This document shows, piece by piece, positions 1,775-63,853 of a stretch of DNA of 64,000 bases (the stretch's first letter is position 1; each line of letters starts with the position of its first letter). A program made the position numbers and the translations under genes. The notes below the pieces were generated by a model. It had not been told where the DNA came from, did no database searches, and saw only the letters and a program-made list of their open reading frames with translations. This DNA comes from Candidatus Brennerbacteria bacterium (GTDB lineage Bacteria > Patescibacteriota > Minisyncoccia > UBA6257 > GWB1-50-10), in contig JACPEK010000003.1 of assembly GCA_016183535.1 (NCBI GenBank), positions 327 to 64,326 on the forward strand, read 5' to 3'.

Positions 1775-3874
<2,100 letters not shown>

Positions 3875-4308
3875 TCAATAAGACTTGAGGAGAAAACTCG
3901 TCTCGAGCGCACGAATGGTGCGGCGGCCGGCATCTTTTCCGTTTGCCGATATCACCGCGATACCGTTCACATCCAAAGGATCGGGAATCACGAGACGGAT
4001 ATTTTCCGCGGTCGCGCCGTTTACCAACGAAGGCGCGGGCGCGGACGCCGTGCATGGATAGCTCGCGCACCCACTGGGGGTATGCTCAAAAAAATAGTAA
4101 TAGAGCGCGCGTTCGATGCCCGCATCGGCCGCAAAAATGGCGACGGTGGAATTCGCCGCGTCGTTCGACTGCTGAAGTTGATAGTACATGAGGAGTCCCG
4201 CCACCGCGGTCACGGTAAAAAGAATCCCTCCCATCATCACGACGATCAGGATGAGCGCCTGTCCCCCGCGGGGAAATGTATGAATGCCGGTGGAAATTAA
4301 AGACCGCA
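3875..4308 (-). CDS. PilX-like minor pilin / pilus assembly protein (N-terminal hydrophobic segment)
   Basis: ORF 3875..4447; best start MRSLISTGIHTFPRGGQALILIVVMMGGILF... (ATG at 4308) resembles a PilX N-terminal domain; last gene of the pseudopilin series. Confidence 0.45.
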
Positions 4309-4923
4309 TGCTCGAATAATGCTTTCGGGCGCTTTCGGCGCCTCCCGCGGCAAGACCCGCGAGCTCACGGTGGTCTGGAGTTTTGTTTCGCGATCCGCGA
4401 GCGCCGCGTTCCGCGGGCGTACCCCCATCGCGATGGTAATGCGCCACGGATTGCAGACATCATCGTTTGACAGGCCGTTTTGATTCTTCTGCGCCACCGT
4501 GAACGAAACGTACGCGATGGAGGTATTTTCGGCGGTGAGCGCGCGCGCGCCACCGCTCCCGCCCTGCCTTGTGAGTATTCCGCGAACGGCGTCATACGCA
4601 TACACGACCTTCTCCCCATCATGATTAGTAAACGCAACCGAGGAACCGGAGGTTCCGCAGGCGTTCCCCGGATTTTGCCCCTCACAGAAGCGGTATCCAG
4701 TCCTCATCTCCCGCGCCATCTGCTCCAGCACGCCTCCCGCATTGTTGTTCACCGCCATAAGTTCCGTGAGGAGACGTTGATCCCGCACCGCGTTCACAAA
4801 CACGCCCACCGCGATCGTGACGAGTATCGCAAACACCCCCATCGCCACCACGAGCTCAATAAGCGTGAATCCCCCACGTTGGCGATTGAAAATTGAAAAT
4901 TGAAAATTGAAAATGCTTCTCAT
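4297..4923 (-). CDS. Type IV prepilin-like pseudopilin (minor pilin) with class III signal peptide
   Basis: MRSIFNFQFSIFNRQRGG|FTLIELVVAMGVFAIL has the canonical G-FTLIE prepilin cleavage motif; the leader is encoded by a 4x heptanucleotide tandem repeat. Confidence 0.65.
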   Translation of the reverse strand: MRSIFNFQFSIFNRQRGGFTLIELVVAMGVFAILVTIAVGVFVNAVRDQRLLTELMAVNNNAGGVLEQMAREMRTGYRFCEGQNPGNACGTSGSSVAFTNHDGEKVVYAYDAVRGILTRQGGSGGARALTAENTSIAYVSFTVAQKNQNGLSNDDVCNPWRITIAMGVRPRNAALADRETKLQTTVSSRVLPREAPKAPESIIRACGL

Positions 4924-4924: not shown

Positions 4925-5419
4925 TTAGCGCCTCCAGTTGAAGAAATGATCCTCGACATCAATCAATTCCACTTCTCCGCGTTCGTCCCACTCGACCGTC
5001 GCGCCGACTCTTACTTCACGCTCCGACGGGAACGCGATTGTAACGCGTCTCTTAAAAATAGTTTCGGCGCCCCCGCCCGCGAGGGCGTATAAGCCGCTTC
5101 CTTCGTTCAGGCGGAGCCGCGCGCCAGAAGCGGGAAACAACACCGCGCCAGCCACGGATCCATAATCGACCGTGAACGACCCTTCGGTGAGAAATTCCGT
5201 CCACTGACCGCTTCCCCGCTCCGCCACATTCGTATCAATGATGTTCTTTACCACCTCAATCCCCTCCGCGGCGAGTCCCGCCGCGATCGTGCGATTCATC
5301 ACGCCGCGGTTCAAGGCGAAAGAGCGAGTGAAAAGTGCCACAACCCCCAAGAGCCCCACCACCACGAGCCCGAGCGCCACCATGGATTCGGCGAGCGAAC
5401 TCCCCTCCCGATGATTCAT
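4925..5419 (-). CDS. Prepilin-type minor pilin (PilV/GspI-like, degenerate N-terminal motif)
   Basis: MNHREGSSLAESMVALGLVVVGLLGVVALF... has a hydrophobic pilin-like N-terminus; translationally coupled to neighbours. Confidence 0.5.
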   Translation of the reverse strand: MNHREGSSLAESMVALGLVVVGLLGVVALFTRSFALNRGVMNRTIAAGLAAEGIEVVKNIIDTNVAERGSGQWTEFLTEGSFTVDYGSVAGAVLFPASGARLRLNEGSGLYALAGGGAETIFKRRVTIAFPSEREVRVGATVEWDERGEVELIDVEDHFFNWRR

Positions 5420-6042: not shown

Positions 6043-7062
6043 CTAAAAATTCAAGAGCTCGAAATACCACGAAAGAATCGGAAACCCAAGCGTAATGGTC
6101 GCTACAAATCCCAGTACGAGAAATGGTGCAAACGGCAGCTTGTCCCCTATTTTTTTTCTTCCAGTGGCCATGAGAAACCCCCCTCCCGCGCCGCCCGCGA
6201 TAAACGCAAACATGGCGGCAAGGGCGATGTCGGGAAATCCAAGAATAAATCCCGACGCGAGCGCAAGCTTTACATCGCCAAGCCCCATGGCGTTCCCGCG
6301 CGCAAGGAGACTCAAGAACCAGAAAAACATCCCGCCCGCGACGGCGCCTGCGAGATGCATAGCCAACGTTCCCTGAAGGAACGAGGGCGAAAAAAGAAGC
6401 GCGTAATGTTTCAGAAACGACGCGCGGAACGGAGGAAGCGCTCCGCCGTACGCGGCGAGAAGCGCCACAATCCCGACGCCGAGCGCGAGAAGCGCAACAT
6501 TCAACTCGTCGGGGACAAGGTAGTGCCGAATATCAATAACGACGATCGCGAGCCACGCGAGCGCCGCAAGATACCATAAGAAGAGAAAACCGTAGTACCA
6601 CCCGGGCGCCTCGAACGTCGCAATACCGCTCCACCAGCCGGCGGACCCGTACCACGCGCTAAAGAAAATTGGGATGCCGACCGCGAGCGCCGCGGCGGCA
6701 AGTTCGATCGCGGGGTACTGCCACGACAGGCGCGCGCCGCAGGAACGGCACCTCCCGCGTTGGAGCATAAAACTCACGAGCGGAATGAGCTCATACCATC
6801 GGAGTCTTGCGCGGCATTGCATACAATGCGAGCGCCTGCCCGCGCGGTCGGGAGATAAACCAAGCGAGATGCAGGAAAAAAAATTCCGCTCCGGAGAATA
6901 GCGAAGCGTGAGCGCATTCAAAAAACTGCCTGCGGCAAGACCAAAGAGGAAAAGTGAGGCGTAGAAGATGATGCTCATCGCGGTTAGTTGATTAGTTACG
7001 CTACGCTTTAGTTGATTAGTTTTCCCAAACTCACAGAGCGCGGAGCGAACGGAACTAATCAA
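6043..7062 (-). CDS. pilD: Prepilin peptidase PilD (A24 family)
   Basis: N-terminal zinc motif CMQCRARLRWYELIPLVSFMLQRGRCRSCGARL followed by a multi-TM peptidase body; true start may be the internal Met near 6978. Confidence 0.85.
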   Translation of the reverse strand: MISSVRSALCEFGKTNQLKRSVTNQLTAMSIIFYASLFLFGLAAGSFLNALTLRYSPERNFFSCISLGLSPDRAGRRSHCMQCRARLRWYELIPLVSFMLQRGRCRSCGARLSWQYPAIELAAAALAVGIPIFFSAWYGSAGWWSGIATFEAPGWYYGFLFLWYLAALAWLAIVVIDIRHYLVPDELNVALLALGVGIVALLAAYGGALPPFRASFLKHYALLFSPSFLQGTLAMHLAGAVAGGMFFWFLSLLARGNAMGLGDVKLALASGFILGFPDIALAAMFAFIAGGAGGGFLMATGRKKIGDKLPFAPFLVLGFVATITLGFPILSWYFELLNF

Positions 7063-9284: not shown

Positions 9285-10355
9285 TTAGGTTCTCTCGAGG
9301 AGTATCCTCAATTCCGCCGGGTTCAAAGAAAACGACTCCGCAGCTTCAAGCGAGATTTCTTTCCGCTTGATGAGATTCACGAGCGAGCGGTTTAAGGAAA
9401 TCATCCCCTCCTGCACGCTCGTTTCGATGACGAGATCAATCTGATAAATTTTCCGCTCGCGGATAAGATTCCGGATCGCCGAATTCGTGAGCATGATCTC
9501 CGCCGCCGGTATCCGGCCGCCGCCGATGCGCGGCACGAGCCGCTCGGAAATGATGCCGACCAAGGTCGAGGCGAGCTGGGACACCACCTGGCCTTGCTGT
9601 TCCGGCGGGAAACTGTCAATAATGCGGTCTATTGTTTGCGACGCGGAGTTCGTGTGGAGCGTGGAAAATACGAGATGTCCGGTTTCAGCGGCCGTCATCG
9701 CAGTCGCGATGGTCTCCGGATCACGCATCTCGCCGATCATGATAACGTCGGGATCCTGCCGCAAAACCGCGCGGAGCGCCTCGTGGAACGACACCGCGTC
9801 GCTCCCCACTTCACGCTGGGACACAATGCACCGATCTTGTGAAAAAAGATATTCGATAGGATCTTCGACGGTTATCACGTGTTCGGTGCGGGTGTGGTTC
9901 ACTTCATCAAGCATGGCGGCAAGGGTGGTTGATTTGCCGTGGCCGGCGGGACCCACGATAAGAACAAAACCTTGATGGAGCTTCACAAAATCGTGCAGGA
10001 GCGGAGGAAGGTTCAATTCGTCGACGGTGTGAATCTGCGCGGGGATAAGGCGGAGCGCCGCCGCCATGAAACCGCGCTGGAGATACACGTTCACGCGAAA
10101 CCGCGCTTTGTCCTCGTAGTTAAAGGAAAAGTCTATCTGCTTGATCTTCAAAAAACGTTCCTTCTGTTCAGGTGTGAGGAGTGCACTGATGAGCCCCTCG
10201 GCGTCTTCTTTCGTGAGAATGGGCTCGTTCATAAGCGGCACGAGTATGCTGTCCACGCGGAGTGTAGGCTTCCGCCCCACCGCGATATGGAGATCCGACG
10301 CCGCCTGCCGCGCCGTCACAAGGAGAAGTTCGTTTAATTTTTTTACGTAATCCAT
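9285..10355 (-). CDS. pilT: Twitching-motility retraction ATPase PilT
   Basis: 356 aa; Walker A GPAGHGKSTT; PilT-type N-terminal domain and Asp/His boxes. Confidence 0.88.
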   Translation of the reverse strand: MDYVKKLNELLLVTARQAASDLHIAVGRKPTLRVDSILVPLMNEPILTKEDAEGLISALLTPEQKERFLKIKQIDFSFNYEDKARFRVNVYLQRGFMAAALRLIPAQIHTVDELNLPPLLHDFVKLHQGFVLIVGPAGHGKSTTLAAMLDEVNHTRTEHVITVEDPIEYLFSQDRCIVSQREVGSDAVSFHEALRAVLRQDPDVIMIGEMRDPETIATAMTAAETGHLVFSTLHTNSASQTIDRIIDSFPPEQQGQVVSQLASTLVGIISERLVPRIGGGRIPAAEIMLTNSAIRNLIRERKIYQIDLVIETSVQEGMISLNRSLVNLIKRKEISLEAAESFSLNPAELRILLERT

Positions 10356-19865: not shown

Positions 19866-21164
19866 ATGAAACGGATATGGATGTATCTAGCAATGGCGTT
19901 GGTCATTGCGACTGCGTCCATTCCGAATGCGGGATGGGCGCAGGCGGTGTCGGCGGACATCACCATCAGTCGAAACCTTCTGCCGGACAGTTTAAGAAAT
20001 TATATTTATTCTCTCTGGGTAGACGGGAACGGTGATATTTTCACGACGATGCCATGGAAGGCGTTGCTCCGTTCGACGGATGACGGGGTGACGTGGAAGC
20101 AGATCTTCAAGAGAGATTTTCTCTCTAATTTCGGGTTTGCGGTCATGCGCGATCAGAAAACCAATGCACTCCTCTTTGGAAACGGGGGGGGGTTGTACCG
20201 GTCAAGCGACGATGGCGCAAGCTGGACCTTTGTATGGGAAAAGGGAGCGGGATGTTTCCTTGTGAAGCCAGACGGCTCTATTCTCGCCGGCACCGGTAAA
20301 CATATCGGCCATTCCGAAGATGGAGGCGTGTCGTGGAAAACGGTACTCTACCGCGACGACCACTATTTCAACGTGGAAGCGCTCGCGATGAGTCCAAAGA
20401 CGGGTTCTCTCTTTGCGGGCACCGCGGACACTATCGGTTTGGGCGTGCTCCGCTCAACTGATGATGGCACAACGTGGCACCAGTCGAACAGCGGTCTTGG
20501 GGATCTTCATGTGTGGGCGCTCGCCACGGACAATAACGGAACCATTTACGCGGGGGTCGAGAGAAAAGGTCTTTACCGTTCCACTGACGATGGAGTCACG
20601 TGGGAGAAAGTACCAGGATTCAACGCTTCACCGAGAAACGCCATCGCAATTCTCGTGCTGAAGCCCGATCTTATCTGCGTCGGTTTTGGCTGGAAGGGTG
20701 GCGGCGATCCCGTGGGAAAGGGTGGCGGCTTCAAATATGACGGCAAGGCGTGGACGCAATTTATTGCGGACTCCATAGATGTAACCTCGTTCGCAGTGAA
20801 GGGCAAATCGCTCCTTGTCGGCTCGTTAGACGCTATCTACCGCGTGGACGGGGCGATCGATACGCCGGTGTCCGTGGAAGAGGAACCTGATGTAATCCCC
20901 TCCTCGTTCGTTCTGCATCAGAACTTCCCCAATCCCTTCAATCCGAGTACCACGATAACCTTCTCGCTTCCCGATCGAAGCCATGTACGCCTCGCGGTGT
21001 GGAACGTGATCGGCGAGGAAGTCGCAACGTTGGTCGAGGAAGAACGGTCGGCTGGGATCCATCGGATTGTTTGGAACGCCAAGGGTCTCCCGAGCGGTAT
21101 TTATCTATACCGGATGCAAACAGAAACATCAGTACAGGCAAAGCGGATGATGCTGCTGAAATGA
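19866..21164 (+). CDS. Secreted BNR/Asp-box repeat beta-propeller protein with T9SS-type C-terminal sorting domain
   Basis: Signal peptide; about six S-x-D-x-G-x-T-W Asp-box repeats (STDDGVTW, SSDDGASW, HSEDGGVSW...); C-terminal 80 aa NFPNPFNPSTTITFSLPDRSHVRLAVWN...GLPSGIYLYRM...KRMMLLK matches Por_Secre_tail. Confidence 0.85.
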   Translation: MKRIWMYLAMALVIATASIPNAGWAQAVSADITISRNLLPDSLRNYIYSLWVDGNGDIFTTMPWKALLRSTDDGVTWKQIFKRDFLSNFGFAVMRDQKTNALLFGNGGGLYRSSDDGASWTFVWEKGAGCFLVKPDGSILAGTGKHIGHSEDGGVSWKTVLYRDDHYFNVEALAMSPKTGSLFAGTADTIGLGVLRSTDDGTTWHQSNSGLGDLHVWALATDNNGTIYAGVERKGLYRSTDDGVTWEKVPGFNASPRNAIAILVLKPDLICVGFGWKGGGDPVGKGGGFKYDGKAWTQFIADSIDVTSFAVKGKSLLVGSLDAIYRVDGAIDTPVSVEEEPDVIPSSFVLHQNFPNPFNPSTTITFSLPDRSHVRLAVWNVIGEEVATLVEEERSAGIHRIVWNAKGLPSGIYLYRMQTETSVQAKRMMLLK

Positions 21165-21182
21165 TATTCAAAGGGCTTGATA

Positions 21183-21218
21183 CATAAGTATCAAGCCCTT
21201 TTGCTTTTCTAATTCGTT
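21183..21218 (+). terminator. Rho-independent terminator, copy 1 of a repeated hairpin (gggcttgatac...gtatcaagccc plus T-run)
   Basis: 11-bp perfect stem; near-identical copies at 28738 and 31540, each right after a CTD-encoding 3' end. Confidence 0.8.
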
Positions 21219-21312
21219 GGTTTCAAAGTAATAAGCCATATTATTAAATTTTACATTTCCCAAACTTCATGATAAAACATTCTTAGAATCTAAATAATTT
21301 AAGGAGAAAACA

Positions 21313-21819
21313 ATGAAACCATTACTGATTCTTATCTATGGTCCTAACGGCGCCGGTAAAACTACCCTAGCTAGAGCTCTTGCCACAAAATATCGCGGGC
21401 TTCAAATCCAGATCGATACATTCTCAAGTATGGCCCGAGGTAGGTTTTGGCATACACGCCAGAATAATAAAGACAAAATGGTGCTTGTGCTGGGAGTTTT
21501 GGATGCCGCAATGAAAAGTACGAGTCACCGGCGGTTTTTCCTTGAGGGGGTATTAATTTATCCATTTATGTTCAAACTACTCGAGGCCTGGTGTAAGAAA
21601 AATTTCGTGAAGTTTGTTCCAATTTATCTGACCGGAAATCTTGTTGATCTCGATTTCAGAATCAGACACCGGAAAATCTTGAAGAAAAATTGGAATGAGC
21701 ACCTCCCAGAATTTTTCGAGAACTTTCATTATAAGAAAGCTCGAAAAATATCTAGCTCAGGCAAGACATCTCAAGTTGTATTGAAAGAAATTCAAGCAGT
21801 AATTGGAGAAAGGGGGTAG
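21313..21819 (+). CDS. Small P-loop NTPase/kinase-like protein
   Basis: 168 aa; Walker A GPNGAGKTT near the N-terminus; low-GC; first gene of the island operon. Confidence 0.55.
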   Translation: MKPLLILIYGPNGAGKTTLARALATKYRGLQIQIDTFSSMARGRFWHTRQNNKDKMVLVLGVLDAAMKSTSHRRFFLEGVLIYPFMFKLLEAWCKKNFVKFVPIYLTGNLVDLDFRIRHRKILKKNWNEHLPEFFENFHYKKARKISSSGKTSQVVLKEIQAVIGERG

Positions 21820-21822
21820 GCC

Positions 21823-22257
21823 GTGGAATATTCTATGAGCATTCTTAAGCCAGATTGCATCGAGAGAAACATGGAGGGCACCGTGCGAAGAATGTTAACC
21901 GAACACGGCTTCCTCGTTCTCTTAGAAAAGAGGACTAGACTTTCGTTGGACGATGTATCGTTTATCTATGAGAGATGTGTCGGCGAAGATTTTTTTAAGG
22001 ATTTTGCGGCATTTCTCACGTCTGGCGACGTAGTCGTGTTGGTTCTTTCAAATCCTACGTCCAAAAACGTGATAAAAGATTTGAATAGCCTTGTTGGTCA
22101 TACTAATCCTCAGCTTGCAAAAGACTATACCATCAGAAAGCTTGGAGAAAGCGTTCGCCGGAACCTCGTCCACTCATCAGCAGATCCCCCATCTTTTTGG
22201 AGAGAAGCTTCACGGATGTTTTCTGAGAAGGAGATGTGCGATGCGGGTCTTGAATAA
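21823..22257 (+). CDS. Nucleoside diphosphate kinase-like protein (divergent)
   Basis: ILKPD near the N-terminus and NLVHSSAD (NDK His-active-site region NxxHxSD) near the C-terminus; possible alternative start ATG at 21835. Confidence 0.6.
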   Translation: MEYSMSILKPDCIERNMEGTVRRMLTEHGFLVLLEKRTRLSLDDVSFIYERCVGEDFFKDFAAFLTSGDVVVLVLSNPTSKNVIKDLNSLVGHTNPQLAKDYTIRKLGESVRRNLVHSSADPPSFWREASRMFSEKEMCDAGLE

Positions 22258-22291
22258 AAATTCTTGACCCGCTTTTGTTATAATTTTCCAT

Positions 22292-22570
22292 ATGGATCTA
22301 GAAAGATTTGAAAAAGATTTTCAGAAAAAGTTGAAAAGTTATCCGAAAGTGTGGGGTAAAGAGGAACGTATCCTTCACCTCGTGGAGGAGATTGGAGAAT
22401 TTGCTGAAATCACTCTCCAATATAACGGAAGGAAGGAGCCAAAAAGGAACCTTACTGATGTTAAAATTGCCCTTGCCGACGTTCTTGAAGATGTCCTCGC
22501 CCTTTCAGTCCTCTATGATTTAAAGTTTGAAAAGCTTCTAGAGGAGATTATTAATGAAAAAAATAACTAG
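22292..22570 (+). CDS. MazG-like all-alpha nucleoside triphosphate pyrophosphohydrolase (small)
   Basis: 92 aa; EEIGEFAE metal-binding EExxE motif typical of MazG-like NTP-PPases. Confidence 0.6.
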   Translation: MDLERFEKDFQKKLKSYPKVWGKEERILHLVEEIGEFAEITLQYNGRKEPKRNLTDVKIALADVLEDVLALSVLYDLKFEKLLEEIINEKNN

Positions 22571-23342
22571 AGCCACTTACGCTCTAACACTTACTGAAGC
22601 ATTGCGCCTTCTAAGGAAGGAAACGAGCGTTTTGAGAAATTTAGAGTTCATCGCGTTACTTGGTAGCGTAAAGATCAAAGAACACGTTCCGGGATATAGC
22701 GATTTGGATTTGCTTCTTATACTCAAATCTGACGCTAGTGGAGCTTTAGACGAAAAACTTCTTTTAGAGTTGCAAAAAATATGCGCAGATTTGTCGAAAA
22801 CTTATCGAATAAATATCTCGTTTTTGACTCATACAGAAAAAGAATTGGTCGAGTATGTCGACTACGAATATTTGAAACATTATTCATCGGGTAAATTGCT
22901 TTATGGGAAACCAGAATTATTTTCGAAACTTTTTAAAAGGATAATTTCTAGAAAGAAATCCTATGGTAAGAAGCTAGTGAGAGAAATGTTCAAAAGCATT
23001 GTCCATGCCCGCTTTAATCTTATAAGAAAGTTTGTATCTCTAAACAAATTCAATACTAGAAACTATCGGGATGGTTTACTGAAATTATTTATCGATAATT
23101 TGTTTGAAATAGCTGACTGGAGACTCATCGCCGATGAAATCTGGTGCGTTTCTAAAAAAGAAATTGTGAGTAGAATATTTTCGATCTCAAAAAGTCCACA
23201 CAGGGAAATATTGGAAAGCGCGTATAAATATCGCAGAGACTGGAATCATTTGGTTGTTTCCAGTAAACAAGCCAGATCTTTTTTTATTAGTGGGATTAAA
23301 TTTATCAATGACTGCGTTCGTGATCTAGAGAGACGAACATGA
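22554..23342 (+). CDS. Nucleotidyltransferase (Pol-beta superfamily minimal NTase) domain protein
   Basis: GS-x11-DLD motif (LLGSVKIKEHVPGYSDLDLLLIL) followed by a helical C-terminal domain; overlaps MazG by 17 nt and GT4 by 4 nt. Confidence 0.6.
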   Translation: MKKITRATYALTLTEALRLLRKETSVLRNLEFIALLGSVKIKEHVPGYSDLDLLLILKSDASGALDEKLLLELQKICADLSKTYRINISFLTHTEKELVEYVDYEYLKHYSSGKLLYGKPELFSKLFKRIISRKKSYGKKLVREMFKSIVHARFNLIRKFVSLNKFNTRNYRDGLLKLFIDNLFEIADWRLIADEIWCVSKKEIVSRIFSISKSPHREILESAYKYRRDWNHLVVSSKQARSFFISGIKFINDCVRDLERRT

Positions 23343-24442
23343 GAATTGTCTTTGTTTCAAGGTCGCTCCCATATCTTGGAGGGAGGGAGGTTATAGTGGA
23401 GCGATTAATGGAAAAATTAAAATATAGACATCATATTTTATTACTGACGCCGGATGCCGGACTGAAAAGAAGAGGCATTAAAGTCGTTAACATAAATAAA
23501 AACCTAAAAAGAATAGTTGGGGGGTTTAGGCCTGATATTATAAGTTGCCACACGTTTTATTTTTTTAACCTCGCATATAAGCTATCCCGCGCTCTAGATG
23601 TTCCCCTTATTACAACGTTCCATGGAATGTTTTTGAGACTTTATGGCAAAGATTATCGCTCAATAATCAGAAATATTTGTGAAAAAAGCTTCGTCGTTAC
23701 TGTGGTCTCTAGAAACTATAAGGAGGAGCTCATTCGCGCCCTACGAGTCAGCAGGGCAAAAATTTCTGTAATTAAGAATGGTATACCAAAAGGCGAGGTT
23801 TCTCGGATCAATAAAAATATTTTCAAGTTAAAAAATTATATTCCTTTGGACAAAACTCTCGTCGTTGTCCCAGCTCGAACCGATAAGATTAAAGGACTTG
23901 AGTATCTTATTGGAGTTGCAAAAAAAATAAAGAATGGGGGCTTTTTCTTTTTAGTGTGTTCTCCAATCGGACGCCATAACAATTGGGAGAAGTTATTTAT
24001 GAAAAAACTAGTAGAACTCGCCCCTCCTAAAGATGTAATTGACTTCAGAGAATATGCTCATTCAGATTTACAGAAGCTCTTTCACGTCTGCGATATCTGC
24101 CTTCTCCCCTCGCTGATGGAAGGCGTGTCGATTTCAATTCTTGAAGCAATGGAGAAAGGTTGCATTGTAATCACAACCAATGTTGGAGGAAGCCCAGAAG
24201 TCATAAAGAATGGAGTGAACGGATACTTAATTGAACCGAGAAATGTTAAGGAAATTGTGCATGCACTTGAAAGGTGTACTAAACTCACAAAGTTTACTAG
24301 AGAGAAAATAAAAAACAACGCGAGGAAAACTGTACAAACTAGATTTTCCGAGGAAAAGATGTTAAAATCCTACGAAGATTTATTCCTTAAAGTAATCAAG
24401 AGGCATGAAAATAAGCAACGACGCACAAGCGGTAGTTTATAA
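23339..24442 (+). CDS. Glycosyltransferase family 4 (GT-B, group 1)
   Basis: C-terminal EGVSISILEAMEKGCIVITTNVGGSPEVIKNGVNGYL matches the GT1/GT4 EX7E region. Confidence 0.75.
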   Translation: MRIVFVSRSLPYLGGREVIVERLMEKLKYRHHILLLTPDAGLKRRGIKVVNINKNLKRIVGGFRPDIISCHTFYFFNLAYKLSRALDVPLITTFHGMFLRLYGKDYRSIIRNICEKSFVVTVVSRNYKEELIRALRVSRAKISVIKNGIPKGEVSRINKNIFKLKNYIPLDKTLVVVPARTDKIKGLEYLIGVAKKIKNGGFFFLVCSPIGRHNNWEKLFMKKLVELAPPKDVIDFREYAHSDLQKLFHVCDICLLPSLMEGVSISILEAMEKGCIVITTNVGGSPEVIKNGVNGYLIEPRNVKEIVHALERCTKLTKFTREKIKNNARKTVQTRFSEEKMLKSYEDLFLKVIKRHENKQRRTSGSL

Positions 24443-24839
24443 GCAAGGAGATCAGGGGTTGTTGTTTCTTGTGTTGAAGCGTTTTGATCCGGATAAGAAT
24501 GAGACTCATTATCGACTGATAAAGGGAAGGATTAAAGAAAAAGAAGGTGAAACTTCCGAAGTAGCGGTTTTGAGAGAAATAAAGGAAGAAGCTGGACTTA
24601 CTAAGTTGAGAATCGTTTCAAAAATTCCTAGTTATTCTTATGAAGCGGGCGATGTCAGACATGAAGTAAGCGTCTTTCTAGTAGAAAACACTGCGGAAGA
24701 GTTGGTAAGTGTTGACTCCAGCGAAGAAGGTGCGTTTACCATAGAAGGCGCAACGTGGTTTAGGGTGGAGGATATAGCAACGAAGTTAAACTTCGAGGTA
24801 GAGCGAGCGGCGATTCGGGAGGGATTAAAGCTCGTTTAG
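24405..24839 (+). CDS. Nudix hydrolase
   Basis: Nudix box GRIKEKEGETSEVAVLREIKEEAGL (G-x5-E-x7-REVxEExGU); start overlaps GT4 by 38 nt. Confidence 0.7.
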   Translation: MKISNDAQAVVYKQGDQGLLFLVLKRFDPDKNETHYRLIKGRIKEKEGETSEVAVLREIKEEAGLTKLRIVSKIPSYSYEAGDVRHEVSVFLVENTAEELVSVDSSEEGAFTIEGATWFRVEDIATKLNFEVERAAIREGLKLV

Positions 24840-25859
24840 AATATTTTTAATGGCGTTTTCGCTCGACTGCGAGCGGAATAATTTCACATTCTTTAAGAAA
24901 TTTGGGTGAGAGTTTTCCTCGAATCTTCCCTCGAAATCTATAACAAAAACCCTCTTTAGTAAGCTACTTGCTATCTGTATCAAGCTTCCTTCCGCGCCAA
25001 CTGCGGTGTGACAACTTGCAAGCTCAATTAGTGTTTCTCGATAGCTTAGCCTATTCACAAAGTTTATAACCTTAGGGGAAACCCTGATGGCTCCATTCCC
25101 TTTTCCTAAGAGTGCAACGGCGTTCCTTCTTTTGTTGATTTTATGAACCAAACTCTCTGTTTTCTCAAAACTTTTTGAGGTATCTTCGACACCGGCGATT
25201 ACCCCGATCCTCTTGTGCTTCCTTTTTGAATATATCAACTCCTTTTCATTGGTGGAAAAAAATATTTTTGGCTCGTATTCGTAAAACTTAGTTCCAAGGT
25301 AATGTTCGGAAAGTTTTTGCCACGCTAAAGTATTTCCAAATTTACCAAAGATATCTCGCCACGCTTTAAGATCCCTATCAAACACGATCACTGCCGCTCT
25401 TAAAGAAAAAAGCATCAGCAACGTTTCTCTTAATGTATCTCTTCCAAGGCCAACAAGAATACAGTTCCCCCTTATAAATTGGAATCTACTTCGAAACGAC
25501 CAAATGTGAATCGAATCAATGTTGGGATTATTCTCTAGTATTTGCGCATGTCCTCGAGTAGTTAAAATAGAAACCCGATACCCATCCCTTTTCCAATTTT
25601 CAAAAAGACCTGTCTGGAAAAAAATATCCCCATATCCCTGCTTCAACGGTTCCACAAATAATATGTTCTTTATGCCTCGTAAATTACTCTTTTTGGGGAT
25701 AAACCATATGAACGCGGTGAGTATAATATCCCTTAATACAAAGAACAGCATGAAGATCAAAGCATAGAAAAACCCTTTCTTTTTCCTGATCTTATGGTAC
25801 TTTCTCCTGATCCTTTCCAGATACGTTATGTGCATATGTTCGGTAATATTATCCGACAT
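24825..25859 (-). CDS. Glycosyltransferase family 9-like (heptosyltransferase-like)
   Basis: 344 aa; N-terminal ILFVEPLKQGYGDIFFQTGLFENWKR...NNPNIDSI resembles GT9 ADP-heptose:LPS heptosyltransferases; low-GC. Confidence 0.55.
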   Translation of the reverse strand: MSDNITEHMHITYLERIRRKYHKIRKKKGFFYALIFMLFFVLRDIILTAFIWFIPKKSNLRGIKNILFVEPLKQGYGDIFFQTGLFENWKRDGYRVSILTTRGHAQILENNPNIDSIHIWSFRSRFQFIRGNCILVGLGRDTLRETLLMLFSLRAAVIVFDRDLKAWRDIFGKFGNTLAWQKLSEHYLGTKFYEYEPKIFFSTNEKELIYSKRKHKRIGVIAGVEDTSKSFEKTESLVHKINKRRNAVALLGKGNGAIRVSPKVINFVNRLSYRETLIELASCHTAVGAEGSLIQIASSLLKRVFVIDFEGRFEENSHPNFLKNVKLFRSQSSENAIKNILNEL

Positions 25860-25861
25860 GC

Positions 25862-26134
25862 ATGCTACTTACTCAACATGAATATTCGCAGAACTACCCG
25901 AACCCGTTCAATCCAACGACGACCATCGCCTTCTCGCTTCCCGACCGAAGCCATGTACGCCTCGCGGTGTACAATGCGCTCGGCGAGGAAGTCGCGGCCT
26001 TGGTGGACGAGGAAATCGCGGCCGGCACCCACAAGACCACGTGGGACGCCTCCGGACTCCCGAGCGGCATCTACTTTGTGCGAATGAATGCTCACACATT
26101 CACCGCCACGAAGAAGATGGTGTTACTGAAGTAG
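25862..26134 (+). pseudogene. Orphan T9SS C-terminal sorting domain fragment (5'-truncated cargo gene)
   Basis: 90-aa ORF is essentially only NYPNPFNPTTTIAFSLPDRSHVRLAVYN...GLPSGIYFVRM...KKMVLLK; high-GC, abutting a low-GC gene with a junction near 25885. Confidence 0.7.
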
Positions 26135-26144
26135 ATTTATTTAA

Positions 26145-26178
26145 AGAGCCGATTGCACATGCAATTGGCTCTTTTTTG
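26145..26178 (+). terminator. Rho-independent terminator after the orphan CTD fragment
   Basis: agagccgattgca / tgcaattggctct hairpin followed by TTTTTTG. Confidence 0.65.
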
Positions 26179-26196
26179 CGGGGCACTAATTTTTTA

Positions 26197-26916
26197 TTAT
26201 TCCTCTAAAAACCACCTTGCCGGCAATGGCCCACCGGATTTTTTATAGATATGCTTTACCAAACCAGAAAGAATCATTTTTTTAATCTCAATACTGCTCG
26301 CTTTATAAAAATGTTCAACTTGGTTAGAAAATTTTCTATCCGTTCTTTTTAAAATCTTCCGCATCTCGTTCGGTTGTCTTAAAAACTCTCCGCTTAACTT
26401 AAGGAACAATTCCACAATGTTGGTGATCAATAAATGGCTGTCGATGCCAAATGCCAAATAATCTTTGCCTTTAATGTCACGTTGAACCTCCCCCCAAAAA
26501 TCATCAATGGAGTATTTGTGCATTAAAACCTCTCCATTTTTATATTTAGCTTTTAACTTCAGATTGTCTCTAGCAACTATTTGGATTCTCTCTAAGCTCC
26601 GCCGTCTTTGAAAGAGAATCCTGCCGTGCGCCAGCATATGTGAGGTTATTCTTCTCAGGCCATTTCTATCCTCCTTAAGATATTTTTTAGCTTCCGCCCA
26701 TGTATTAAAAATAATGTCCACACGAACCCCGTTTTTGATAAAATTACTTCTGGAAAATTTACCACTTTGGCTCAAGAGGATATATATGTCAACGTCCGAA
26801 TATGTATCAAATTTATTTCTTGCCACAGATCCGAATAGTAAAATACCCAAGACATTTTTGTCCGGTTTATATTGATCTACTACTTCGCTGCAAATTTTTT
26901 GGATGAACTTCTCCAT
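26197..26916 (-). CDS. Nucleotidyltransferase domain protein (Pol-beta superfamily, paralogous class to 22554..23342)
   Basis: LFGSVARNKFDTYSDVDIYILL GS-x9-DVD NTase motif; 239 aa; low-GC. Confidence 0.65.
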   Translation of the reverse strand: MEKFIQKICSEVVDQYKPDKNVLGILLFGSVARNKFDTYSDVDIYILLSQSGKFSRSNFIKNGVRVDIIFNTWAEAKKYLKEDRNGLRRITSHMLAHGRILFQRRRSLERIQIVARDNLKLKAKYKNGEVLMHKYSIDDFWGEVQRDIKGKDYLAFGIDSHLLITNIVELFLKLSGEFLRQPNEMRKILKRTDRKFSNQVEHFYKASSIEIKKMILSGLVKHIYKKSGGPLPARWFLEE

Positions 26917-26978
26917 AAATAAAAATAGGGCTAAGGTAAGTATAAAACTTTTCCTTAGCCCCGCGAAGTCGTCACCCT

Positions 26979-27080
26979 CTAGTGGCAGTTGCTGGGGCTT
27001 TGACAGGTGCAGAACACCTTTAGCTTCGGCAGTGCCTTGACTTTGAGGATCGGCTGCTGTTTGAGCTTCGTCTTCTGCAT
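26979..27080 (-). CDS. Putative RiPP precursor peptide (33 aa, Lys-rich leader, C-terminal C-x-C-x6-C)
   Basis: GGAAAGGAGG RBS, then ATG 5 nt after the rSAM stop codon; MQKTKLKQQPILKVKALPKLKVFCTCQSPSNCH; same strand and immediately downstream of the rSAM/SPASM enzyme. Confidence 0.55.
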   Translation of the reverse strand: MQKTKLKQQPILKVKALPKLKVFCTCQSPSNCH

Positions 27081-27085
27081 AGCAT

Positions 27086-28525
27086 TCACCTCCTTTCCGT
27101 TGCAGGTTGGAGAAGTTCCGGCCCTGACGCCGTCGCTTCCCGCAGTTGTTCTCGAAGAATCTCGTGGGTCATACGGCGGTAGAAGTCGCACATTCGTTCG
27201 ATCTTGACGGTTTTCGTCGCCCGAGCGAACTCTTGCGTAATGTTGCAACCACCACCGCACTGCCCTTCGATCATGCACCCTTTACACATTTCCATTACTC
27301 CGGTGAGATGATCTCTCACAAAGCGATGATAGGCGGTGCCTGACGCATGAAACGACTGGATTTCCGAGAGACTCCCGAGTTGGGTCGTGCTGTAGCCACA
27401 TCCGTAGATGTTTCCGGACGGGCCTACGCACATGCTGTTGCCGCGGACTGCGCCGCAGAACGCGACACGGCTTTCGAGCGTTGATCCGTTAAGATTCTCG
27501 GCTGGCCGTGACCAGAAGCCGGGAACATCAACGCCTCGTGCCGCCGCGTAGCGCCGAATCCGCATCAGCTTTGCGACGACATCTTCAATCGGAATTTCCA
27601 CCATATCGACAACGTCGATATCAATCCTGACGTTCTTCATGCCGCGGGTTACTGCCCAGTCGACAATCGACTCGTCAAGTTCGTGAAAATTCTTTTCGGT
27701 GACTGTCACCGCGATGCCATCGAGTGGATACCCCGCTTGCGCCAACGCATCGAATCCACGCATTATTTGGGAGAATGTACCGCCCCCAGACTTCGTCAAG
27801 CGGACGTGATCATTTCCCTCGCGCAAGCCGTCGAGACTAGAAGCAATCTCGACGCGATGTTCTTTGAGAATCGCGGCGATATCTGGCGTAATGAGTGACG
27901 CGTTCGTGTTGATCGAGAAGTGAAACTCGAATTCCGAACCATAGGCGATACGGCAGTATTCAAACATCTGCTTGATGACTGGCCACGCCAACAGCGGTTC
28001 GCCTCCACCAAAGTTGATCTCGGCGACACGCTTTCCATGACCGCGAAGAATCTCGAGATACCGATCCACCGTTTCCTTGGCTGTGTCATACCGCATAAAC
28101 TTTTTGGGGTTGTTGATGCGGTCAGAAGTTTCCAAGTTGTTAAAGTGGATGCAATAGGTGCAACGGAAGTTGCACGCCTCACTCATGATGAGCTCGAGAT
28201 AATCAATCAGCGAACCGCTGATAATTTCCTTTTCCCCTTCTCGCATCCGCTCTTCGAGAAATGCTCGGTCATCGAAACCCTCTGGAACAAGGAAATGACA
28301 CTGCAAAAATTCCTCAATTGCTTCCCGATTTTCGTCGGTCAACTCATTGCCGACCTGTGAACGAACCGTTATCGGCTCGGAGAACGACTCAAGAAATTCG
28401 AGCGTCTCAACGGGAACAACTCTTGGGTATCCAAACAGTGAGTGCCAAATCACCGCAGAGTCGCCATCTAGAACGGCCTGCACGAACGGCGACTTCGTGT
28501 AAGCGACATTAAGGTTAAGTGCCAT
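27086..28525 (-). CDS. Radical SAM / SPASM-domain peptide-modifying enzyme
   Basis: CNFRCTYC (CxxxCxxC) radical-SAM cluster motif near residue 125; Cys-rich SPASM region CGAVRGNSMCVGPSGNIYGCGYS...CKGCMIEGQCGGGCN; about 100-aa N-terminal extension that could be an RRE-like domain. Confidence 0.8.
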   Translation of the reverse strand: MALNLNVAYTKSPFVQAVLDGDSAVIWHSLFGYPRVVPVETLEFLESFSEPITVRSQVGNELTDENREAIEEFLQCHFLVPEGFDDRAFLEERMREGEKEIISGSLIDYLELIMSEACNFRCTYCIHFNNLETSDRINNPKKFMRYDTAKETVDRYLEILRGHGKRVAEINFGGGEPLLAWPVIKQMFEYCRIAYGSEFEFHFSINTNASLITPDIAAILKEHRVEIASSLDGLREGNDHVRLTKSGGGTFSQIMRGFDALAQAGYPLDGIAVTVTEKNFHELDESIVDWAVTRGMKNVRIDIDVVDMVEIPIEDVVAKLMRIRRYAAARGVDVPGFWSRPAENLNGSTLESRVAFCGAVRGNSMCVGPSGNIYGCGYSTTQLGSLSEIQSFHASGTAYHRFVRDHLTGVMEMCKGCMIEGQCGGGCNITQEFARATKTVKIERMCDFYRRMTHEILREQLREATASGPELLQPATERR

Positions 28526-28648
28526 TGCAGGCTCCTTTCTTTGTTTTTTAAACGATTCAACAGATTTCTTTGTTATCTACAGAATGACAATTATTATAAT
28601 ACTTGTCAAATCGCATAATGTTTCTCCATTATCAAGATATCTTTACGG

Positions 28649-28727
28649 CATCTACTTCTATCGCTTGGAGACCGATTCGCCAGCTGGCGGATTCACGGCC
28701 GTAAAGAAGATGATCCTACTAAAGTAG
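28649..28727 (+). pseudogene. Remnant of a T9SS CTD 3' end (..GIYFYRLETDSPAGGFTAVKKMILLK*)
   Basis: In-frame match to the last about 25 aa of CTD copies, with an extra SPAGG coded by the palindrome CGCCAGCTGGCG; followed by terminator copy 2. Confidence 0.6.
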
Positions 28728-28737
28728 CTTTATTAAA

Positions 28738-28776
28738 GGGCTTGATACAAATGTATCAAGCCCTTTTGCGTTTTGT
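28738..28776 (+). terminator. Rho-independent terminator, repeat copy 2
   Basis: gggcttgatacaaatgtatcaagccc plus TTTTGCGTTTTG; near-identical to copies 1 and 3. Confidence 0.8.
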
Positions 28777-28801
28777 TTGGATGTAGTACTATGAAATCGA
28801 A

Positions 28802-28993
28802 ATGGCCACCGCAACTTTTCTCCAAAAGCTGAATACGGAATTGAAACGCATCGTTGCGCACGCGGTGCTTGATACCCTTACTGACCCCGATCTCGGCGCA
28901 GAACTCACCCTGCATGCCAAGCGACGTCTGCGCGCGGCCGCTCGCGGACGAAGCGTTGCCACGCTCGCGGAGATAAAAAAGAAACATTACTGA
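28802..28993 (+). CDS. Putative type II antitoxin (addiction-module component, TIGR02574-like) paired with the RelE/ParE toxin
   Basis: 63 aa; stop overlaps the toxin start (ATGA); position and size typical of an antitoxin. Confidence 0.5.
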   Translation: MATATFLQKLNTELKRIVAHAVLDTLTDPDLGAELTLHAKRRLRAAARGRSVATLAEIKKKHY

Positions 28994-29265
28994 TGGGCAG
29001 ATGGTCGCTCGGGTTCACGCGGAGTGCTGAGGAGGACCTCGCGCAATTGGATCGGCCGGTCCGTCGCCGCATTATCGACAAACTCGAATGGCTATCGGCA
29101 CACTTCGATGGAATTATCCCCTCGGCGCTACATGCGGAGTTCCGCGAGTTCTACAAACTTCGGGTGGGCGACTGGCGTGTCGTTTATAAAATCGAGTGGC
29201 GCAAATACTCCATCATGATTTGCTACATTGACCGCCGCGACCGGGTATACAAAAAAGGAAGGTAG
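28993..29265 (+). CDS. RelE/ParE family type II toxin
   Basis: 90 aa; YKLRVGDWRVVYKIE...IMICYIDRRDRVY matches the RelE/ParE core. Confidence 0.7.
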   Translation: MGRWSLGFTRSAEEDLAQLDRPVRRRIIDKLEWLSAHFDGIIPSALHAEFREFYKLRVGDWRVVYKIEWRKYSIMICYIDRRDRVYKKGR

Positions 29266-29267
29266 TT

Positions 29268-29597
29268 ATAGACACCGCTCTCAAACGGCTTGCCACCGTT
29301 CGTGTCGAGGAGGGTGACTTCTCGCCGCTTCCTACCCACTACTCACTGGGACAAAACTACCCGAACCCATTCAATCCCACGACCACGATCACCTTCTCAC
29401 TTCCCGACCGAAGCCACGTACGCCTCACGGTGTACAATGCGATTGGTCAGGAAGTCGTGAAGTTGGTTGACGAGGAGGTCTCCGCAGGCACCCACAAAAC
29501 AACGTGGGACGCCTCCGGCCTCCCGAGCGGCATCTATTTCTATCGTTTGGAAACGAAGCAATTCATCCAAACGAGGAAGACTATGTTCATGAAGTAG
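29268..29597 (+). pseudogene. 5'-truncated T9SS cargo gene fragment (linker plus complete CTD)
   Basis: Reading frame open from 29268 with no start codon; ..HYSLGQNYPNPFNPTTTITFSLPDRSHVRLTVYNAIGQEVVKLVDEEVSAGTHKTTWDASGLPSGIYFYRLETKQFIQTRKTMFMK*; followed by a hairpin terminator at 29611-29645. Confidence 0.65.
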
Positions 29598-29746
29598 ATT
29601 TATTGATTCGAAAGCCCTGTACAATACGCATGGGGCTTTTTGTGGCGCTGTTCGATAACTGTTGAAAAGCTTTGATTATGCGAGCACGGGCAAATCAGGG
29701 AATCAAGTAAAATGGAGGGTTATCGAACGGCCCCTTTTTGATTGAT

Positions 29747-29775
29747 TTGACAAACTGGCACCCGCACACTTTAAT
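29747..29775 (+). promoter_or_regulatory. Sigma70-like promoter TTGACA-17-TTTAAT upstream of the DUF397 gene
   Basis: -35 at 29747-29752, 17-nt spacer, -10 at 29770-29775; AAGGAGGTG RBS at about 29817. Confidence 0.45.
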
Positions 29776-29834
29776 GTAACTAGGTTATTTCCGAGAGGAA
29801 AATTTAAAATCTAGATAAGGAGGTGAGAAAGACG

Positions 29835-30065
29835 ATGGTTCAAGCTGATGACAAAAAAAAGCTCCGGCAAATCAAATTCAGGGATAGCGATTTTCACAAA
29901 GCTAGCGGTACCCTGATGAGGAGAATCTGCGTTATGGTCGCACATAAAAAAGGCGCCATAGCAGTGCGCGATTCAAAAGATGCATTGAAGAAAACGCTCA
30001 TTTTCAACGAAGCAGAATGGAGCGTTTTCATCAAGGGCGTCAAGGCCGGCGAGTTTGATATATAA
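29835..30065 (+). CDS. DUF397 domain protein
   Basis: CVMVAHKKGAIAVRDSKDALKKTLIFNEAEWSVFIKGVKAGEFD closely matches the DUF397 consensus (..VRDSKDP.GP.L.F...EW.AF...VKAGEFD); alternative GTG start at 29823. Confidence 0.7.
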   Translation: MVQADDKKKLRQIKFRDSDFHKASGTLMRRICVMVAHKKGAIAVRDSKDALKKTLIFNEAEWSVFIKGVKAGEFDI

Positions 30066-30147
30066 AGCGAACTCGTGAAAAGTAAGTCGAGAAGAGGGTA
30101 ATATAGTCTTGTTACCCTCTTTTTTATGTTAAAATTATTAAATATTC

Positions 30148-30903
30148 ATGGAAAAAAATCTAAAAATAAAACTTTCAAAAGAGTTTTCACTATACGGGAA
30201 ATTTAGTGGTTCTTTTAATCAGCCATTATTTATTATTGCACACGGGTTTTCGGGGAATATGGATGAAGAATTTTATCGTTTAGCTACTTATTGGTTTGGA
30301 AAGCATGGGTTTTCAACATTCCGGTTTAATTTTTATGGTCATCAAAAAGATGCTCGGCAGCTTATGAATTGTACTCTTAAAACACATAGCACTGACTTTG
30401 ACACAATTGTTCGTTATTTTAGAAAGCGTGGGGTGAGGAAAGTATTTGTTGTAGGACACAGTTTTGGTGGATTGGTAATTTTTTGTTCTCGCAATCAAGA
30501 TTTTGACGGTGCGGTGCTCTGGGATCCATCTTACAAAATTTCATTTACAAAGACGATGTTTGGTTTTCCGGGCGGGAAATATATAAAAGAGATAAATGGT
30601 TATCTTATGAAATGGGGGGTAAATTTGATTATTGGAAAAGTAATGGCAAAAGAAATTGATTCACTTCAATGGGATTCAATAGCAAAAAATTTTAAAGTGC
30701 CTTTTAAAATAATTCTTGCTGGAAAAGGTGCGCTTAAAGGCACAAAAAAATATCTAAATAATGCAAAGGTGGAGAAAGATTTGATGATTGTAGAAGGAGC
30801 AACACATTATTTTAATGATCGAGATGGGATGCAAGAGAAAGTTTTTAAATCTTCTGAAGAATGGTTTAGAAAATTTATAAAAATTCGTCGTCATTATAAT
30901 TAG
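30148..30903 (+). CDS. Alpha/beta-fold hydrolase (serine esterase-like)
   Basis: 251 aa; nucleophile elbow VVGHSFGG; low-GC. Confidence 0.65.
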   Translation: MEKNLKIKLSKEFSLYGKFSGSFNQPLFIIAHGFSGNMDEEFYRLATYWFGKHGFSTFRFNFYGHQKDARQLMNCTLKTHSTDFDTIVRYFRKRGVRKVFVVGHSFGGLVIFCSRNQDFDGAVLWDPSYKISFTKTMFGFPGGKYIKEINGYLMKWGVNLIIGKVMAKEIDSLQWDSIAKNFKVPFKIILAGKGALKGTKKYLNNAKVEKDLMIVEGATHYFNDRDGMQEKVFKSSEEWFRKFIKIRRHYN

Positions 30904-31065
30904 GTAATTAGGGAGTTTTGTAACCATATGGTAGTAAAATACCCATATGGCACAAGACGAAAGAATGTTTTCGGTTGCGCGGCCAACTTTTTGAGGGGGA
31001 GAAAGTGTATTTTCTGTGGGTCGTTCAAGGTATGCAAGACGAAGCGCGACTATGCGCGGCGCCGC

Positions 31066-31529: not shown

Positions 31530-31539
31530 CTTTATCAAA

Positions 31540-31574
31540 GGGCTTGATACATTCGTATCAAGCCCTTTTGCGTT
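31540..31574 (+). terminator. Rho-independent terminator, repeat copy 3
   Basis: gggcttgatacattcgtatcaagccc plus TTTTGCGTT. Confidence 0.8.
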
Positions 31575-31593
31575 AGAATCGCCTCGTTTGATT

Positions 31594-31833: not shown

Positions 31834-31836
31834 ACC

Positions 31837-45688: not shown

Positions 45689-45798
45689 ATCGTGTAAAAA
45701 TTATCAATTACCGATTTTCAATTATCAATGAATTCTCAATTCCTCAATTTCCAACTGGTCATTGAAAATCAGAATTCATGCCTTCGGTATGTTTCATG

Positions 45799-63009: not shown

Positions 63010-63015
63010 ATAAAT

Positions 63016-63550: not shown

Positions 63551-63557
63551 AAAAATT

Positions 63558-63776: not shown

Positions 63777-63853
63777 AGTATGATAGTATAAGTATGAGCG
63801 TTGAAACTAACCCTCACAACTATACTAACATGAATTTAATCTTTTCTCAATTT

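Follow-up and report, generated by a model that had tools for sequence, protein, structure and literature searches.

A short translated heptanucleotide array in the leader of a minor type IV pilin gene of Candidatus Brennerbacteria

Many bacteria have an excess of heptameric simple sequence repeats (SSRs), for which one proposed reason is that 7 nt corresponds to the footprint of the polymerase active site (PMC4692102); in Xanthomonas, most of the GGGAATC arrays have four units (PMC4692102). TAACTGA repeats are found in marine Beggiatoaceae, Cyanobacteria and Bacteroidetes in 2-6 copies, mostly a few nucleotides from a start codon (MacGregor 2015, PMC4679880). The documented phase-variable heptamer tracts of Haemophilus influenzae have 13-38 units (PMC2651432). 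Here we analyze a 64-kb stretch of DNA (positions 1-64000, hereafter the window) from Candidatus Brennerbacteria, a member of the candidate phyla radiation (CPR, or Patescibacteria), in which a perfect array of ATTGAAA units lies in the leader-coding region of a minor type IV pilin gene. The original prediction for this locus was a phase-variation switch. Our combined findings favour the view that the array is a by-product of heptamer-biased mutation that the gene tolerates, and not a dedicated expression switch; on this reading it is one of the over-represented short heptamer repeats, a known class that still lacks an explanation.

The window tract shares with this class a 7-nt tandem unit, a period-7 excess, short arrays and a start-proximal or peripheral location, and it fits the class on every feature examined. 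It differs in being translated, in lying in a cleaved leader and in its CPR host. Its period-7-specific excess, approximately four units, patchy spread and unexplained role are also those of the GGGAATC arrays of Xanthomonas, the GGGGA(C/T)T arrays of Nostoc (PMC4692102) and the short tandemly repeated repetitive (STRR) sequences of cyanobacteria. However, the Xanthomonas and Nostoc arrays are G-rich, overwhelmingly intergenic and studied as G-quadruplex formers, whereas the window array is AT-rich and lies within an open reading frame (ORF). The TAACTGA repeats provide a second likeness, with an identical unit in distant lineages without an evident transfer mechanism and rare copies within ORFs at protein peripheries, essential genes included (PMC4679880). 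They differ in having forward stops in all three frames, in being mostly non-coding and in that related heptamers are not repeated, whereas CPR loci repeat many units. In Haemophilus influenzae, heptanucleotide SSRs are found at hmw1A/hmw2A and as an (AATTTTG)14 tract, a unit almost identical to the AATTTTC of the CPR arrays, which lies inside an adhesin ORF and is associated with frameshift (PMC2651432). Strain variation of these tracts is documented and most act from the promoter (PMC2651432), in contrast to the 4.29 units within an ORF in the window. In the CPR and type IV pilus literature that we retrieved, neither "tandem repeat" nor "phase variation" was found as a term.

In the opa genes of Neisseria, CTCTT pentamer repeats lie in the signal-peptide coding region, the tracts differ among strains and also within them, and out-of-frame alleles are numerous at any time. 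These genes were the model behind the claim of a switch in the window, which likewise has a coding repeat in the leader of a surface protein whose unit is not a multiple of 3, such that a one-unit change shifts the frame. The opa tracts are, however, longer and variable, whereas the window has four units with no variation seen and, as detailed below, none of the CPR pilin arrays is out of frame. Sequence logic by itself does not justify annotating the window tract as a phase-variation switch.

The array and its reading frame

Four ATTGAAA units occupy positions 4885-4912 on the plus strand, and the perfect period-7 run reaches 4914, giving 30 nt and 4.29 units with 100% matches (4.3 copies by Tandem Repeats Finder). 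The exact 28-mer occurs once in the window, and only three perfect arrays with at least 3 copies and at least 15 nt, this one included, are present in the whole 64 kb. None of 100 dinucleotide-preserving shuffles of the window matched the array with 3 mismatches allowed. Chance and assembly artefact were both rejected as its origin, on the grounds of this shuffle expectation of zero and of the in-frame recurrence of the array in many independent assemblies. The gene is on the minus strand, where it begins ATG AGA AGC (ATTTTCA)x4 AT CGC CAA CGT GGG GGA TTC ACG CTT ATT GAG. The array on this coding strand, (ATTTTCA)x4 followed by AT (4885..4914), has a GC content of 14% within surroundings of ~58%.

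The gene itself (4297..4923, minus strand) encodes a minor type IV pilin of 208 amino acids and holds a PilW/GspJ-like position in its cluster. As read from the sequence, its ATG start is at 4921..4923, one base after the TAA stop of the upstream gene (4925-4927, giving TAATATG), and a Shine-Dalgarno-like GGAGG lies 7 nt upstream of the ATG (4931..4935), all on the minus strand. Translation from 4923 yields MRSIFNFQFSIFNRQRGG↓FTLIE, in which the arrow marks the predicted prepilin cleavage/methylation site (4855..4872, minus strand; G-1 and F+1 codons GGATTC at 4867-4872, E+5 codon GAG at 4855-4857) and the array, at codons 4-13 of the leader, supplies IFNFQFSIFN. The 18-residue leader thus contains an aromatic, hydrophobic insert of 7 residues and keeps the basic RQR beside the cleavage site. 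The protein carries the type IV prepilin signature of G-1, F+1 and E+5 followed by a hydrophobic helix (GG↓FTLIELVVAMGVFAILV) and matches PF07963 N_methyl (E = 3.2e-8, residues 14-38), and some of its orthologues also have PF27121 PpdB. It is identical to an NCBI protein from a metagenome-assembled genome of Candidatus Brennerbacteria. Exact-sequence look-ups with the pilin under three gene calls had no match. No same-species relative was found in the protein database, the best non-self match having 76% identity.

No ATG, GTG or TTG lies in frame between the array and the cleavage site, and the array must therefore be translated. Alleles with every unit number from 0 to 8 were constructed in silico. 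Those with 1, 4 or 7 units retain an intact pilin ORF, and in those with 2, 3, 5 or 6 units the ORF from the ATG at 4923 stops after 17-47 codons; in the out-of-frame alleles the mature-pilin frame has no upstream start codon that could rescue it. The 1-unit allele encodes MRSIFNRQRGG↓FTLIE, an ordinary short basic leader. The AATTTTC array is open in all three frames, and since 7 and 3 have no common factor, each frame encodes one and the same cyclic peptide, NFQFSIF; only one orientation is seen inside ORFs because the reverse orientation has TGA in every frame. The original prediction had placed four ATTGAAA units at 4885-4912 in a pseudopilin leader, encoding IFNFQFSIFN between the start codon and the G↓FTLIE site, and had proposed that gain or loss of one unit would frameshift the gene. 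These statements hold, with the run extending slightly further and with the 3- and 5-unit alleles truncated in silico.

This frame logic makes it conceivable that the tract is a true contingency locus, in which one-unit changes by slipped-strand mispairing toggle the minor pilin, and hence pilus composition or assembly, and in which selection for mutability keeps the tract perfect. Such a locus could aid escape from pilus-specific phages or alter attachment to the host. Four units would be ON and 3 or 5 OFF, with no rescuing start, and the tract is free of mismatches and greatly exceeds its surroundings in AT content. Moreover, CPR pilin genes of diverse kinds repeatedly carry heptamer arrays at their 5' ends, and pilin genes are a class in which contingency loci are expected; the unit and size of the array are kept in orthologues with diverged flanks. 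Known contingency loci likewise keep their repeat units. A tract of about four units was also seen to be able to change by one unit in viral contigs (below), and heptamer tracts drive phase variation in Haemophilus influenzae, including the tract within an ORF (PMC2651432). We nonetheless consider a contingency locus unlikely, though one acting at a low rate is a real possibility, in view of the evidence on frame, copy number and strains from other genomes.

Related arrays, frame and copy number in CPR pilin genes

We compared the window with other loci and contigs (L numbers) and proteins (P numbers). Most of 82 orthologues of the pilin have short leaders such as MRNSRSG↓FT. The repeat-encoded motif is present in four of them, namely the window protein, P0018, P0039 and P0070 (100, 50, 41 and 40% identity to the query), and a decayed copy in P0005, and possibly another in P0008, brings this to 4-6 of 82, scattered across the family. 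At the DNA level, the motif-bearing orthologues always have a heptamer repeat, with 3.43 units in L001, one substitution in L027 and a split by an insert in L028, and among these orthologues the repeat peptide was never found encoded by non-repetitive codons. The comparison with orthologues suggested by the original prediction thus has two outcomes, since the array is absent from most of the family and yet no orthologue encodes the peptide without the DNA repeat.

A DNA search that was blind to frame, requiring an AATTTTC array and then within 30 nt GGATTCAC, recovered array-bearing pilin leaders from Zambryskiibacteria, Saccharibacteria, Paceibacterota and a Microgenomates-type genome, together with approximately 11 further metagenomic pilin-like genes that have the array. 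The Saccharibacteria gene (L007) is an orthologue, being preceded by an EDHFFNW gene end as in the window and having the same stop/ATG arrangement. At several loci the array is found in two adjacent pilin genes, and by our grouping of N-termini the array-bearing genes span at least four pilin types (major-pilin-like, GspI/PilV-like, PilW-like and PilX-like). A HMMER scan of 1.84 billion cluster representatives added intact copies in P0145, P0146, P0152 and P0185 and decayed ones in P0147, P0151 and P0167. In total, approximately 25 array-bearing pilin-like genes were found at the DNA level, 20 with AATTTTC and 5 with other heptamer units, and more at the protein level only. Decayed peptide copies read FHFFPFSIF, FNFQFLIF, FNFLFSLFHF and FNFTFLIL. 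When the repeat peptide alone served as a protein query, the matches were confined to spurious, very small ORFs overlying long arrays of unrelated bacteria; hits of ~10 residues, the size in pilins, do not reach the allowed E-value, and this search is therefore not a census of contexts. Those long (AATTTTC)n arrays, of up to ~15 units (P0083, P0088, P0096 and P0103; Moraxella lacunata, Desulfonema magnum and Symploca), are annotated as tiny hypothetical proteins made of NFQFSIF repeats.

The peptide FNFQFSIF, with its alternating aromatic and polar residues, might itself be a functional leader extension that modulates membrane insertion, processing by the prepilin peptidase PilD or the order of minor-pilin assembly. 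It is always translated, N-terminal to basic residues and the G↓F site, and is ~9-11 residues long in many pilin families. However, besides never being encoded by non-repetitive codons, the peptide decays together with the DNA repeat, other heptamer units at the same position give unrelated peptides, the same peptide is encoded in ligase linkers and in viral intergenic DNA, and most orthologues do without it. A functional peptide is thus very improbable.

Other kinds of insert also occur in CPR pilin leaders. In-frame inserts of other sequence are present in P0032, P0045, P0073, P0171 and P0179, and in several orthologues a GF(T/I)P(S/L)E pseudo-leader is duplicated, with an insert after it. 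In L001, ~125 nt (10037-10170) separate in frame a pseudo-leader, KKGGFT, from the true G↓FTVTE site. The leader of L064 (~940-1030) contains an imperfect palindrome, CACGAAT/ATTCGTG, translated as TNFTNN...IRATRG, and this leader pattern is found at the protein level in P0003, P0004, P0006, P0009 and P0016.

The reading frame of the arrays argues against switching. The AATTTTC array is in frame from a start upstream of it in 20 of 20 distinct pilin-like genes, as are the other heptamer units in 5 of 5 further ones. Thus, no out-of-frame allele was found among 25 pilin-like genes even though the search pattern was blind to frame; if 30% of alleles were OFF, the chance of finding none would be ~1e-4 (0.7^25). 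Two arrays initially flagged for want of an in-frame start were examined as possible OFF alleles and rejected, one lying inside ligA and the other being in frame with a different pilin-like gene. The pilin-leader arrays have 2.9-4.6 units, and none has 7, the next number that restores the frame; leaders longer by the corresponding 7 residues were absent from the exhaustive protein census as well. The 4.29 units of the window tract are above the permissive detection threshold of at least 3 units and far below the range of the documented heptamer switches. In addition, the essential gene ligA and PilD contain this array or sister arrays in frame, and decayed arrays are common.

Strain comparisons point in the same direction, within the few strains available. 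Apparent same-species replicates proved to be the same sequence (L001 = L003 = L009; L007 = L020) and were not counted as independent, leaving L001 and L002 as the sole distinct strain pair. These two have 10 differences in 5,820 nt and an identical array, so that the copy number, which had been proposed as a check on the switch, is invariant in this one pair. Across greater distances, an identical 30-nt array is found in three orthologues whose flanks are only ~66% identical. The only single-unit polymorphism of the AATTTTC repeat that we saw was in viral contigs, in a non-coding tract between a stop and the next ATG. Three lineages have 3.57 units there and a fourth has 4.57 (L037, L040, L048 and L049 compared with L051), with downstream flanks 2-6% diverged. 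A tract of about four units can therefore slip, at a pace of a few percent sequence divergence and not per generation. Taken together, the structural features and frame logic behind the proposed phase-variation switch are present, but switching itself is not supported and, on these limited data, the expected polymorphism was not seen; toggled expression is opposed by the absence of out-of-frame alleles, the low unit numbers, the stable strain pair and the sister arrays in ligA.

Period-7 arrays across loci and the origin of the tract

We then asked how specific the repeats are to the heptamer period by counting arrays with at least 3 units and at least 90% self-identity in 139 kb of non-redundant CPR loci, which are pilus neighbourhoods and not whole genomes and which exclude the window. 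Period 7 was represented by 39 arrays, compared with 6 at period 4, 7 at period 5, 5 at period 6, 1 at period 8 and 0 at periods 9-12. Eighteen of the 39 have units outside the selection made by our searches, and shuffles give 0. The same count in the window gave 2 arrays at period 7 and 0 at periods 8-12. Other units include AAGCAGC, CCTGCCT, TTACCCC, AAAACTC, AAAATCC, CTAGAGC and GGTCAAA, the last present seven times in tandem, and more. These non-AATTTTC units occupy pilin leaders, the 5' untranslated regions (UTRs) of a major pilin gene and of ligA, PilD, and ligase linkers. In one orthologous pair the leader has AATTTTC in L026 and AAGCAGC plus CCTGCCT in L008. Position and period are thus common to the arrays and sequence is not, which disfavours both a sequence-specific binding site and a functional peptide. 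These observations point to mutation in steps of 7 nt, with the resulting arrays retained at sites that absorb in-frame insertions without harm.

The location of the arrays would also suit a cis-acting element at the translation start. This could be an initiation region that is AU-rich and unstructured, a site recognized by an RNA-binding regulator, or a sigma-70-like promoter in antisense orientation. Pilin arrays lie within the first dozen or so codons, and arrays are found just upstream of the starts of enolase in L011, a major pilin in L016 and ligA in L008. As leads only, the plus strand at 4886-4914 spells TTGAAA-N17-GAAAAT, a 9/12 match to a promoter, and at 45700-45728 degenerate copies of the heptamer unit make up a promoter-like site with 10/12 matches, located 12 nt upstream of a gene at 44738-45688; approximately 4.1 units are the minimum that holds both hexamers, close to the modal array size. 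There is also a precedent in the start-proximal TAACTGA repeats of Beggiatoaceae, which were proposed as regulator sites (PMC4679880). However, consensus promoter matches in AT-rich DNA are weak evidence, and AU-richness or a specific binder fails for the class as a whole, with unrelated GC-rich units (CCTGCCT, AAGCAGC, TTACCCC) at orthologous positions. Arrays are also found deep inside ligA, PilD and a large glycosyltransferase-like membrane protein, and most orthologues have no array. We thus regard a cis-acting element as distinctly improbable. A structured RNA or known RNA family was rejected, with no Rfam match and no significant structure with either 4 units or 1.

The arrays are not confined to pilin genes. 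In the window, ligA (NAD-dependent DNA ligase) contains a sister array, (AATTTCC)x3 (2235..2255, minus strand), in frame in the HhH linker, where it encodes SNFQFP, and a period-7/14 array of CCAAAAG/TCAAAAG (1996..2023, minus strand) in the HhH-BRCT linker, where it encodes QKPKVKSQK. At the ligase position matching window 2235-2255, L005 from Zambryskiibacteria has (AATTTTC)x4.29, and it also has (AGAATCC)x3.3 in its HhH-BRCT linker. The KNF or DNF found at that ligase position in relatives looks like a putative seed. Since these arrays are in frame in an essential gene, switching there would be lethal. Further arrays lie in PilD, in the large glycosyltransferase-like membrane protein, in the gap between a stop and the enolase start (L011) and in signal-peptide or membrane segments of Bacteroidales. 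When the search was made without the pilin anchor, the array was found in 35 viral contigs with a GC content of 21-63%, mostly in intergenic DNA and with 3.3-5.9 units, apart from one of 11.

We therefore favour, with roughly even confidence in its being correct, a tolerated, lineage-specific, slippage-type heptamer microsatellite that lengthens the cleaved leader by 7 residues. A single ATTTTCAAT would already have been present in a short canonical leader, MRSIFNRQRGG↓FT, and a net gain of three units (21 nt, 7 amino acids, FNFQFSI) could have followed via replication slippage or template switching. With the frame kept and the added residues in a leader removed by PilD, the mature pilin would be unchanged and the array could persist; PilD would be expected to remove the leader, repeat-encoded residues included. 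Subtracting three units gives canonical leaders both in the window (MRSIFNRQRGG↓FT, in silico) and in L001 (MKMFNKKGG↓FT, by reading the sequence). The nearest relative, L064 (76% identity), has no heptamer array and carries its palindromic leader insert instead. L065, from Brennerbacteria (59% identity), has the leader MKNDFRQG↓FT, with no heptamer array in its 16.6 kb and a ligase without arrays. As the nearest relatives lack the array, the window tract would represent a three-unit gain on a pre-existing ATTTTCAAT-like seed, and the presence of both GC-rich and AT-rich units at the same kinds of site makes a sequence-specific function unlikely.

Several observations weigh against a tolerated microsatellite. 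AATTTTC itself is found in at least 20 pilin leaders, from Brennerbacteria to the Microgenomates-type genome and unassigned contigs, at a local GC content of 34-58%. To recur by a purely neutral process, it would require either ectopic copying or a seed common to these genes (K-N-F-Q or K-K-F-S codons), although its uniformity is partly due to ascertainment, as the DNA search patterns required this unit. The identical arrays between ~66% identical flanks imply that the arrays are constrained, are homogenised or have been gained repeatedly, ending each time in the one in-frame state close by. In the essential ligA, a three-unit net gain cannot proceed via out-of-frame intermediates, and simple stepwise slippage is thus not the whole mechanism. 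Finally, three of the four clearest heptamer arrays of the window lie within 3.2 kb, in ligA and the pilin gene, a clustering that exceeds what tolerance alone obviously predicts.

A broader proposal is that the type IV pilus genes of CPR bacteria are the focus of a heptamer-specific repeat system, working either as low-copy contingency loci across the radiation or as a shared cis-regulatory code. It would take in major and minor pilin leaders, 5' UTRs, PilD and the adjacent ligA, with (AATTTTC)4 in prepilin leaders as its commonest form. We consider both the existence and this scope of such a system quite unlikely. If true, it could vary the pilus used by these episymbionts for host attachment and DNA uptake, and since type IV pili are central to CPR episymbiosis, any mechanism that varies or co-regulates them would matter. 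If neutral, the arrays are a clean natural record of heptamer-biased mutation and of the tolerance of cleaved leaders to insertion. The recurrence of short period-7 arrays, notably (AATTTTC)~4 in prepilin leaders across CPR classes, merits a systematic look.

The pilus cluster and other features of the window

The array-bearing gene lies in a cluster ordered pilB, pilT, pilC, two pilins, the prepilin peptidase gene pilD, four minor-pilin-like genes, ligA, gatC and gatA, in which it is the third of the four minor-pilin-like genes downstream of pilD. Relatives have the same gene order. PilB, PilT and PilC were assigned by ORF sequence and by synteny with the annotated loci L001, L004 and L065. 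PilD (A24 family; 6043..7062, minus strand) matches PF06750 (9.5e-24) and PF01478 (8e-10); its ORF was called from the first start and is possibly over-extended. In two relatives, a small ORF with a GIY-YIG domain lies between pilT and pilC (L001 5567-5851 and L065 3634-3918), and a GIY-YIG domain is fused N-terminally to two orthologues of the array-bearing pilin (P0021 and P0046). No GIY-YIG ORF lies between pilT and pilC in the window.

In ligA (2192-2255, minus strand), the (AATTTCC)x3 array is followed by a 35-nt insert (2200-2234), with direct repeats CAATTTCC at 2248-2255 and 2192-2199. The 12 extra residues of the window ligase relative to the L004 ligase correspond to the array expansion plus this insert. 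The layout of an array, an insert of 30-42 nt and a repeated unit is also found in the pilin leaders of L025, L026 and L028, and suggests that insertion into, or duplication at, heptamer arrays may have taken place. For these four arrays (L025, L026, L028 and window ligA) we considered a transposon footprint with a 7-bp target duplication; the inserts have no obvious common sequence. The second ligA array (1996-2023) is a perfect 14-nt x2.2 repeat of two related heptamers, and its length is unchanged compared with orthologues.

Elsewhere in the window, the degenerate GAAAATT-type run (AATTATC AATTACC GATTTTC AATTATC ... AATTTCC) at 45699-45760 is intergenic and lies upstream of a DUF5671 membrane-protein gene (44738-45688, minus strand), forming a promoter-like TTGATA-N17-GATAAT that ends 12 nt before the ATG of that gene. 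No tRNA genes, and no Rfam families at the gathering threshold, were found in the window. Two stretches, ~21000-32000 and 62000-64000, have a low GC content (0.37-0.48, compared with 0.55-0.60 elsewhere in the window). The first encodes a GT4 glycosyltransferase, two nucleotidyltransferase-domain proteins, a radical SAM protein and an alpha/beta hydrolase, and may be an acquired island. At 30975-31529 it also encodes a protein with a Por_Secre_tail domain, a C-terminal sorting domain of the type IX secretion system (T9SS), which is unexpected in a CPR genome.

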